NCBI GenBank assembly: GCA_034428515.1
Contig: DAOUHQ010000013.1
Span: 82,371-146,370 of the forward strand
Origin: Dehalococcoidia bacterium
Lineage (GTDB): Bacteria > Chloroflexota > Dehalococcoidia > UBA6926
Length of the DNA: 64,000 bases
Direction of reading: 5' to 3'
In this document: one piece after another, positions 28,646 to 28,978 of the stretch
Layout of the letters: each line of letters begins with the position of its first letter
Numbering within the stretch: position 1 is the stretch's first letter
The notes under the pieces: model-generated
Databases searched by the model: none
Seen by the model: the letters and a program-made list of their open reading frames with translations, nothing else
What the model was told of the DNA's origin: nothing
Position numbers and translations under genes: made by a program

Positions 28646-28978
28646 TCATGATTTCATTCCCGCCGGTCCATCCACGTCCCTGGCGACAGTCACTTTGCGC
28701 TCTGTCGTTGTTGCTGTGGCGATGGGGAAGGGTTTATCGGTGGTGACGGAGATGGTGATGGACCTGACTCCGAGGTAGGCCCAGTCTCTCGTGATCAAGT
28801 TGTCCTCCGCATCGATAATCGGGCGGTCACGAAACCGCCGCCGTTATTCTCGAAGTCGCCAGGCGTGGAGCGTGAATGTCGCCGTGTGGGCCGTCGCCTC
28901 CGAAGTGGCATCCTCGGACTCTTCGACATCACGCTCTCTCGTTGTACGGGTGGTGATGAGGCAGGGGTTATCGGCCAT
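28646..28978 (-). pseudogene. Frameshifted, rearranged orphan copies of the giant protein's pre-tip segment
   Basis: Translates as ADNPCLITTRTTRER / DVEESEDATSEATAHTATFTLHA / FENNGGGFV / DNLITRDWAYLGVRSITISVTTDKPFPIATATTTERKVTV, matching giant-gene bases ~31400-31683. Confidence 0.85.

Follow-up and report, generated by a model that had tools for sequence, protein, structure and literature searches.

A probable orphan stub of a giant surface-protein gene at the distal edge of a polymorphic-toxin-like cargo locus in a Dehalococcoidia conjugative element

How does a piece of a gene come to lie beyond that gene's own 3' end? The question is raised by a 64,000-nucleotide (nt) stretch of DNA from a Dehalococcoidia bacterium, which was analysed as a whole and which we call the window. 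Within it a giant gene (29629 to 36894) encodes a surface protein of 2421 amino acids (aa), an open reading frame (ORF) for a 206-aa membrane protein follows (29007 to 29627), and past this ORF lies a 333-base segment (28646 to 28978) that is a broken partial copy of the neighboring giant gene. Coordinates of the segment, the giant gene and the membrane ORF refer to the minus strand. An earlier note on this DNA had read the segment as a likely recombination junction for the exchange of the giant protein's C-terminal tip, made of scars from at least two replacement events or of decayed silent cassettes. Our analysis suggests that the segment is probably a non-functional, terminal orphan stub of the 3' part of at least one diverged allele of the giant gene, situated at the far end of a cargo locus that resembles a polymorphic toxin locus.

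The homology between the segment and the giant gene was found in two ways. When positions 28500 to 29100 were compared with the window by BLASTN, 28659 to 28930 aligned as a direct, diverged copy of giant-gene positions 31403 to 31677 (75.2% identity over 278 columns, E = 4e-45), the counterpart of residues 1740 to 1831 of the giant protein. A repeat search that is independent of BLASTN returned the same direct repeats at a spacing of 2744 to 2747 nt (families D6, D10 and D11). The frameshifted copy of the giant gene described in the earlier note is therefore real and its alignment significant, with the correction that it corresponds to 31403 to 31677 instead of about 31500 to 31683 and includes a copy of the motif that it was said to lie between. 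The two 26-mers quoted there as an example are at 28829 to 28854 and 31574 to 31599 and differ at three positions; no such match is expected by chance.

The motif in question, which we call ADNP after part of its translation (ADNPFPITTGTTAER), is 45 nt long and was said to recur twice in diverged form. This was confirmed: besides the giant-gene copy at 31441 to 31485 there are copies at 28931 to 28975 and 28697 to 28741, and pairwise identities among the three are 73% to 76%. The first of the orphan copies is identical to each of the other two at 33 or 34 of its 45 positions, and BLASTN also reported an internal direct repeat of 43 nt (28932 to 28974 versus 28698 to 28740, 79%, E = 2e-4).

The segment is thus composed of two fragments. 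The first (28931 to 28975) is a separate copy of the motif that precedes the main copy; it encodes ADNPCLITTRTTRER, with an ATG before it at 28976 to 28978, and represents the first strand of a PKD-like domain of the giant protein (D2). It begins exactly at the first codon of the motif, 28 nt past the stop codon of the membrane ORF. Its edges are sharp, as homology runs from the Ala codon of ADNP to the ER codons, which are fused to codons for DVEESED at a shared GTC, and is confined to these 45 nt, the flanking 18 nt upstream and 15 nt downstream being at chance level. The second fragment (28659 to 28930) comprises a diverged C-terminal half of the preceding Ig (immunoglobulin)-like domain (D1) and the first 30 or so codons of D2; it contains the second motif copy (TDKPFPIATATTTER, 28697 to 28741), and a D2 profile matched its ORF at E = 2.6e-6.

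The segment is a pseudogene. Its translation starts as M-ADNPCLITTRTTRER-DVEESEDATSEATAHTATFTLHAW, passes through 39 nt that are out of frame and contain a TAA, and ends with IIDAEDNLITRDWAYLGVRSITISVTTDKPFPIATATTTERKVTVARDVDGPAGMKS before a stop. The frame is broken by a pair of indels 39 nt apart, +1 near 28860 and −1 near 28821/2, and the TAA (28844 to 28846) lies between them in the entering frame; the disrupted stretch as a whole is 28821 to 28860. One frame of the stub reads MADNPCLITTRTTRER-DVEESEDATSEATAHTATFTLHAWRLRE up to a stop, the shifted stretch reads FENNGGGFV in another frame, and the return leads to DRPIIDAEDNLITRDWAYLGVRSITISVTTDKPFPIATATTTERKVTVARDVDGPAGMKS and a stop, where the corresponding text of the giant gene is DVEESEDVNAAGKTIHTATFTLHACAFENNGGGFVIATFLDSNDNVVAGDWVYLEVRPVTVSISADNPFPITTGTTAERKVTLTAGMDGPVG. 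The last stop codon (28646 to 28648) follows DVDGPAGMKS, and homology to D2 ends about four codons before it.

The manner in which the stub has diverged is informative. Mismatches to the giant gene fall 20, 10 and 27 times on first, second and third codon positions, respectively (chi-square ~7.7, p ~0.02), and because second positions carry the fewest, much of the divergence accumulated before coding was lost. This codon-position bias and the equal divergence of the three motif copies indicate that the stub and the giant-gene copies are separate alleles and not a recent local duplication. The differences are otherwise substitutions in all directions, mostly transitions, together with indels, and they have no adenine-specific pattern. 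Since the three motif copies are equally diverged, more than one event is needed. The earlier note was right in kind in seeing a scar of tip exchange: the segment is a real, pseudogenised copy of the stretch that leads up to the C-terminal module, and it lies directly after the membrane ORF. Its “at least two events” is a reasonable reading but too specific, as the history cannot be reconstructed and the order and number of events are inferred. The stub has neither a tip nor an immunity gene and so is not a usable silent cassette.

About 80 nt past the remnant there is a G+C-rich hairpin followed by a T-rich stretch (28544 to 28565, minus strand), which is the probable transcription end of the unit formed by the giant gene and the membrane ORF. 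A 101-nt fold around it has an energy of −35 kcal/mol (z = −3.7), and a scan with consensus terminators did not flag it despite this strong fold. The stub is then probably carried only as 3' untranslated sequence. Positions 27000 to 30000 had no match in Rfam.

From its N-terminus the giant protein consists of a hydrophobic signal or anchor, a Pro/Thr linker, some 14 FN3-like repeats (period 645 nt), D1 (residues 1679 to 1798; 31501 to 31860), D2 (residues 1799 to 1897; 31204 to 31500), a helical region (residues 1898 to 2084; 30643 to 31203) and the core of a variable C-terminal domain (CTD; residues 2085 to 2421; 29632 to 30642). D1 is part of a lineage-specific stalk. D2, which starts with VTVSISADNPFPITTG and carries the motif as VTVSIS-ADNPFPITTGTTAER-KVTLTAG, is the first domain common to all members of the family described below. 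The helical region is conserved between tip types and ends in a low-complexity linker rich in Gly and Asn. The core consists of a Cys-rich all-alpha domain and, after it, a beta-sandwich; in addition to its many cysteines it has the motifs CLKHD (H2208 invariant, D2209 near-invariant) and WNPRNK. The 206-aa ORF, whose start overlaps the giant-gene stop, encodes a polytopic protein with about 5 to 7 predicted transmembrane segments and is an immunity-like partner. The locus thus runs from the stalk (FN3 repeats to D1) through D2, helical region and CTD core to the partner gene, the stub and the hairpin. Against Pfam the giant protein gave fn3-type domains only, and the membrane ORF had no match in Pfam or NCBIfam.

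Two further features of these genes were observed. Positions 32988 to 36176 of the giant gene form about 4 to 5 tandem double units of ~645 nt, each with two alternating FN3-like domains and with mutual identities of 71% to 83%; these units are a likely substrate for variation in fibre length. Three contigs from other assemblies break within the 206-aa ORF, namely JGI PetF_10000442 at 29071, Logan SRR3473501_150736 at 29184 and JGI PetF_10000428, which starts at 29524, such that bases 29185 to 29523 are present solely in the window's own assembly. The breaks could reflect strain variation in the partner gene.

A search with giant-protein residues 1898 to 2421 identified eight proteins in which the N-terminal parts differ (cadherin, FN3) and D2 and the C-terminal region are conserved throughout. 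Among 1.84 billion proteins, a profile of the CTD core matched 228 cluster representatives; of the 150 that were listed, nearly all have the CTD within ~100 to 320 residues of the C-terminus, preceded by anything from 0 to ~2,850 residues. The CTD occurs in 34 genomic loci, up to three per genome, all in metagenome-assembled genomes of Dehalococcoidia/Chloroflexi, and within the scope of these searches the family was confined to Dehalococcoidia. In nearly all of these loci the CTD gene is directly followed by an ORF of 190 to 260 aa with 4 to 7 predicted transmembrane segments. The partner proteins are one family, and CTD and partner identities correlate (Spearman 0.37, Mantel p 0.001, 36 pairs). 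The best match of the window's own membrane ORF was the partner of protein P0001 (E = 2e-19), whose tip is also the closest to the window's tip.

Exchange of tips was seen in P0001 and P0002, the products of the L003 and L004 genes from one sample. The two genes share 366 nt of upstream sequence and codons 1 to 526 at 93.7% nucleotide identity over 1945 nt, and past codon 526 they lose all nucleotide homology; their C-terminal cores differ and their genomic neighborhoods are unrelated. In windows of 50 residues the protein identity is 84% to 100% over residues 1 to 500 and then 24% to 54%. The shared blocks are L003 7635 to 9578 and L004 7637 to 9579 and include the promoter. Change points in the G+C content of third codon positions (GC3) fall at residues 500 and 511 of the two proteins, at the linker that follows FIVPA..EP. 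Similarly, the window's giant protein is 51% identical to its homologue in locus L002 over residues 1681 to 2051 (D1, D2 and helical region) and 31% identical in the core, the L002 core resembling the P0002 type. In the window, L002 and L003 the core and partner gene have a G+C content of 0.47 to 0.53 versus 0.61 to 0.65 around them.

As a query, D1 and D2 alone had no match in an index of 5.8 billion proteins, and P0003, which contains both, was found solely through the tip search; pattern scans of metagenome and genome contigs with an alignment of D1, D2 and the helical region returned no relatives.

The same family provides counterparts of the stub. Of the 28 relatives that have both a main gene and sequence beyond it, seven (L008, L009, L012, L015, L016, L018 and L031) have intact orphans, each a tip without a start together with a membrane gene, and nine have fragments of the main gene that lack a tip. 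The window segment belongs to this class of tip-less fragments. In L008, L009, L012, L015, L016 and L018, all chromosomal, the main gene and its membrane gene are followed by an array of truncated core ORFs, each with a membrane gene of its own. The truncated ORFs open with blocks that are 73% to 96% identical to the pre-core region of the main gene and then diverge; in L008 the block is 96% identical over 1211 nt, and L015 has two blocks that both end at residue 784 of the main protein. Some tip-less fragments come directly after the last membrane gene (L012 11570 to 11788, L015 14289 to 14605), and some are scrambled: L015 12522 to 13201 joins an N-terminal piece to a core piece. The earlier note had proposed a search for intact modules of tip and immunity gene that begin at the motif: intact modules exist in the seven relatives, but their 5' ends are scattered over mid-D2, the end of D2, the helical region and the linker. 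No simple decayed duplication of the whole gene was found in the relatives, which have alternative tips on a shared body (L003 and L004), arrays of start-less cassettes and tip-less stubs.

In locus L019 (5804 to 16068) more than ten genes of the membrane-partner family stand in a row after the main gene, and small pieces of the main gene are interspersed among them. This run looks like an immunity-gene island.

Comparison therefore bears out a variable C-terminal domain, a co-varying small gene downstream and, in relatives, start-less downstream cassettes. These are characteristics of polymorphic toxins, and the family of the giant gene and membrane ORF looks like a polymorphic toxin/immunity system. 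On architecture, the CTD would be a toxin and the membrane protein would neutralise it.

A second stub was found in a related element. The window contains type IV secretion genes, a coupling protein, a Replic_Relax relaxase, imuB-dnaE2 and a serine recombinase, followed by chromosomal genes, which indicates an integrated conjugative element; the toxin-like locus is cargo of this element and the stub is its far end. L002, a noisy long-read contig, has a relaxase 74% identical to the window's at the nucleotide level and carries a homologous giant gene (two D1 copies, D1a and D1b, then D2, helical region and core) with one or two membrane ORFs. Its stub, the N-terminal half of a D1, lies ~150 nt from the relaxase stop, the same distal position as in the window. 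As it is closer to the window's D1 (57% aa, 75% nucleotide identity) than to L002's own D1 copies (~42% aa), it is, like the window's stub, the remnant of a different allele. The two stubs also share a 20-mer, identical at 18 of 20 positions, which codes for DVEESED/DVAESDD and lies at the 5' edge of the D1 remnant in the window (28911 to 28930) and at the 3' edge in L002 (12187 to 12206). This match of breakpoints may be a coincidence (about 0.1), a trace of a shared ancestral stub or a fragile site; a scan of genome contigs with the 20-mer hit only unrelated high-GC genomes, so that it is not a specific site.

Where, then, is the boundary at which tips are exchanged? The GC3 of the giant gene changes at codon 1805, on the ADNP motif (log-likelihood ratio 31.8, 2-unit support 1779 to 1823, 0 of 300 permutations), from 0.80 before this residue to 0.59 after it. 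By part, GC3 is 0.73 to 0.84 in the stalk (0.84 in D1), 0.66 in D2, 0.62 in the helical region, 0.53 to 0.57 in the core and 0.47 in the membrane ORF, compared with 0.68 to 0.78 in backbone genes of the element and 0.70 to 0.74 in the stub. Homology shared by all family members likewise starts with D2. That the motif marks a module boundary is supported by this, by the change point on the motif and by the 45-nt copy that starts at its first codon; as a statement on where the crossover zone lies, however, the earlier claim is too specific. The commonest exchange boundary of the family, at which the tips of close relatives are actually seen to differ, is ~260 to 280 codons further 3', at the low-complexity linker near giant-protein residues 2065 to 2085. 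Two nested boundaries were found in all, the start of D2 (residue 1805) and the linker before the CTD core, and the 5' ends of the orphan blocks are scattered.

The stub probably arose as follows. A low-GC3 block from D2 through the CTD to the membrane gene would have been joined to the resident stalk by recombination at or close to the junction of D1 and D2, that is, at the ADNP motif, and thereby have pushed the former 3' end downstream. Later illegitimate joins (ER to DV at the GTC) and deletions would have removed the old tip and its partner gene, leaving 45 nt of one motif copy and, from another allele, the C-terminal half of D1 with ~30 codons of D2. This remnant would then have acquired its frameshifts.

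Several observations weigh against this interpretation. We looked downstream of the stub for a remnant of the old tip or immunity gene and found none, so that displacement is unprovable from the window locus alone. No close relative with an intact version of the window's orphan was found; other relatives of the element hold different cargo at the site, and those identified through the relaxase could not show such a version for this reason (L159 to L164, L167, L169 and L170 have no CTD, membrane-family, D1 or D2 sequences, and a relaxase scan of metagenome contigs gave no match). Being 75% identical to the main gene and lacking long exact runs, the stub is by now poorly suited to homologous recombination with it. 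In addition, GC3 is 0.58 in the stub's own D2-start codons (n = 31) and 0.85 in its D1 tail. The compositional junction at ADNP is therefore older than the separation of the two alleles and does not have to be the site of the latest crossover. Finally, the CTD fits no known toxin family or fold in the databases searched.

The last point leads to the first of the alternatives, that the CTD and the membrane ORF are not toxin and immunity protein at all. They might instead be a surface enzyme with a membrane protein as its partner, for instance, and the stubs and arrays would be ordinary paralogue turnover. That all the partner proteins belong to one family, and that neither member of the pair matches a known toxin or immunity family or fold, would fit this idea. 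However, the start-less tip fragments each have their own membrane gene, arrays of membrane genes alone exist (the more than ten of L019), and tips have been swapped on an otherwise 94%-identical body; moreover, CTD/partner pairs co-diverge and there are up to three loci per genome. If the partner had a housekeeping role, there would be no need for a further copy of it beside every tip, and the pattern is the signature of polymorphic toxins. We consider this alternative unlikely.

Another possibility is that the stub is no scar and has been kept as the right-hand homology arm of the cassette. As a landing pad it would, together with the pre-tip region, flank the cassette with direct repeats and permit its replacement by double crossover or its loop-out as a circle. 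Tip-less pre-tip fragments do recur at or near the ends of arrays in several relatives and in L002, the window's 45-nt fragment starts at the first codon of the module just after the membrane ORF, and the stub is within the probable transcription unit, before the hairpin. Against such a function, the stubs of different loci differ in length and in the part of the gene that they cover, they have no sequence or structure in common and no Rfam match, and the window's stub is frameshifted, only 75% identical to the main gene and shows decay that looks neutral. Retention as an arm is accordingly quite improbable. A bolder version holds that this is an undescribed system confined to Dehalococcoidia, in which an FN3/Ig fibre, a new Cys-rich all-alpha tip and membrane immunity travel as element cargo and the stubs are retained as arms for swaps of the whole D2-to-immunity block by double crossover at the ADNP boundary; taken as a whole, this too must be rated a long shot.

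It is less probable still that part of D1 and D2 was duplicated locally and drifted in place, in a process unrelated to tip exchange. The direct orientation of the copies and the distance of 2.7 kb between them would be accounted for, yet these copies flank exactly the low-GC3 module and its partner gene, the three motif copies are equally diverged, and the codon-position bias indicates divergence while coding. Furthermore, the stub of L002 is nearer to the window's allele than to its own gene, and true alternative tips exist in relatives.

An assembly chimera, or the template repeat of a diversity-generating retroelement, is highly improbable: three assemblies do break in the membrane ORF (at 29071, 29184 and 29524) and a diverged repeat does lie near the 3' part of a gene, but two other contigs carry the stub, joined to the 3' end of the membrane ORF, in unchanged form (JGI PetF_10000442, with one mismatch over 13,456 aligned nt; Logan SRR3473501_150736, 100%), a Pfam scan that covered a subset of the window's ORFs turned up no reverse-transcriptase domain, and the differences are mostly transitions in both directions, with indels and no adenine-specific pattern. 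Recent in-situ duplication, a retroelement template and an assembly artefact were rejected on the evidence counted against each.

Relatives of the element (~75% nucleotide identity) share its backbone up to ~28450, the start of an operon of a small ORF and an XRE-type regulator, and have other cargo beyond. This operon, the final stretch of conserved backbone ahead of the variable cargo, consists of a 53-aa ORF (28456 to 28295) and an 80-aa gene for an XRE-type helix-turn-helix protein (28295 to 28053); upstream of it is a perfect 16-nt palindrome, TAGTACATATGTACTA (28510 to 28525), which is probably the operator of the regulator. At the same cargo site L167 has a different giant surface protein, with Calx-beta, SRCR and SWM repeats, and a 221-aa phosphoribosyltransferase-like ORF (13145 to 21563), and the toxin-like family is absent; large surface-protein genes therefore seem to accumulate at this site. 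Past the giant gene of the window there are an imuB-like gene (37451 to 38908), a dnaE2-like gene for an error-prone polymerase (38922 to 42071), an ORF with a SRAP domain (~42100 to 42768) and a large serine recombinase (42975 to 44630). Chromosomal genes beyond the recombinase (solute-binding protein, SufB, TrkH) place the right end of the element near 45 kb. Elsewhere in the window, a block of low G+C content (~0.50 versus 0.65 to 0.70 alongside) contains a gene for a 1039-aa SIR2/STAND NTPase/TPR protein (655 to 3774), which looks like a defence gene.

How does the locus compare with known systems? In Salmonella Typhimurium LT2 it has been established experimentally that recombination across shared homology fuses the tip of an rhs orphan to the main gene; the functional orphan is 95% identical to the main gene over 522 bp, and rhs orphans have been described as displaced pieces of full-length genes (PMC3967940). 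In the Rhs loci of Enterobacteriaceae, the main gene and its immunity gene are followed by fragments that have part of the conserved region and their own immunity gene and lack start and export signals, and the relatives of the window locus have the same layout. Unlike Rhs, the window system has no YD/Rhs repeats (Pfam), no PxxxxDPxGL motif (translation) and no type VI secretion context; its body is an FN3/Ig-like fibre with an N-terminal signal or anchor, its partner is a polytopic membrane protein, and its orphan, 75% identical to the main gene, has lost both tip and partner.

In contact-dependent inhibition (CDI), cdiA-CT/cdiI orphan arrays are tandem cassettes of tip and immunity gene downstream of the main gene, each starting with a short conserved pre-toxin stretch, and the block of tip and immunity gene is low in G+C. 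The window family resembles them in its downstream cassettes with a pre-toxin stretch and in this low-GC signature. It differs from them in that the window has no CdiB, TPS domain or FHA repeats (Pfam), its neighbors are type IV secretion genes, a relaxase and imuB/dnaE2, and in place of a single short demarcation motif such as VENN the family has two nested boundaries. WapA/WapI of Bacillus subtilis offers a likeness of another kind: a large repeat protein, exported by the Sec pathway to the wall or surface of a cell without an outer membrane, whose C-terminal toxin is polymorphic and whose gene adjoins an immunity gene. The giant protein is likewise a large surface repeat protein with a polymorphic C-terminus and an adjacent partner gene, but WapA has YD repeats, nuclease tips and soluble immunity proteins, whereas the window has FN3/Ig-like repeats, a Cys-rich all-alpha tip and a membrane partner. 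The stub itself is an ordinary scar of a kind known from Rhs and CDI loci; the family of CTDs and membrane partners, and not the stub, is the more interesting result.

The structure of the CTD core was predicted with AlphaFold2. A model from 8 sequences was poor (predicted local distance difference test, pLDDT, 56), and an alignment of 78 sequences was used instead, which gave a pLDDT of 83 and a predicted template modelling score of 0.86 for the all-alpha domain and the beta-sandwich that follows it. A Foldseek search of the PDB with the whole CTD model gave no match at E 0.001, and only the beta-sandwich resembled anything; because the search used the complete model, it was less sensitive to the helical part. 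The CTD also had no match to Pfam, NCBIfam or PDB sequences. In its motif it resembles secreted phospholipase A2-like enzymes, being a Cys-rich, helical and probably disulfide-bonded extracellular domain with an invariant His and the Asp next to it in C-x-K-H-D-x-A-x-x-S/G-L; this is a lead only and not an assignment to that family. Membership was rejected: six family members had no Pfam match at E up to 10, there was no match to PDB sequences, and no Foldseek match was significant.

Dehalococcoidia are uncultured or slow-growing, include sponge symbionts and, to our knowledge, do not have the secretion systems with which such toxins are usually associated. A literature search found no described system of this kind in the class, and contact-dependent competition in these bacteria would therefore, if true, be new biology. 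The family carries the full genomic signature of polymorphic toxin/immunity systems, with tip swaps, orphan arrays and immunity-gene islands, and the locus has two nested exchange boundaries that are open to study in metagenomic populations. The presence of one copy on a conjugative element suggests a link between the spread of the element and the killing or exclusion of neighboring cells.

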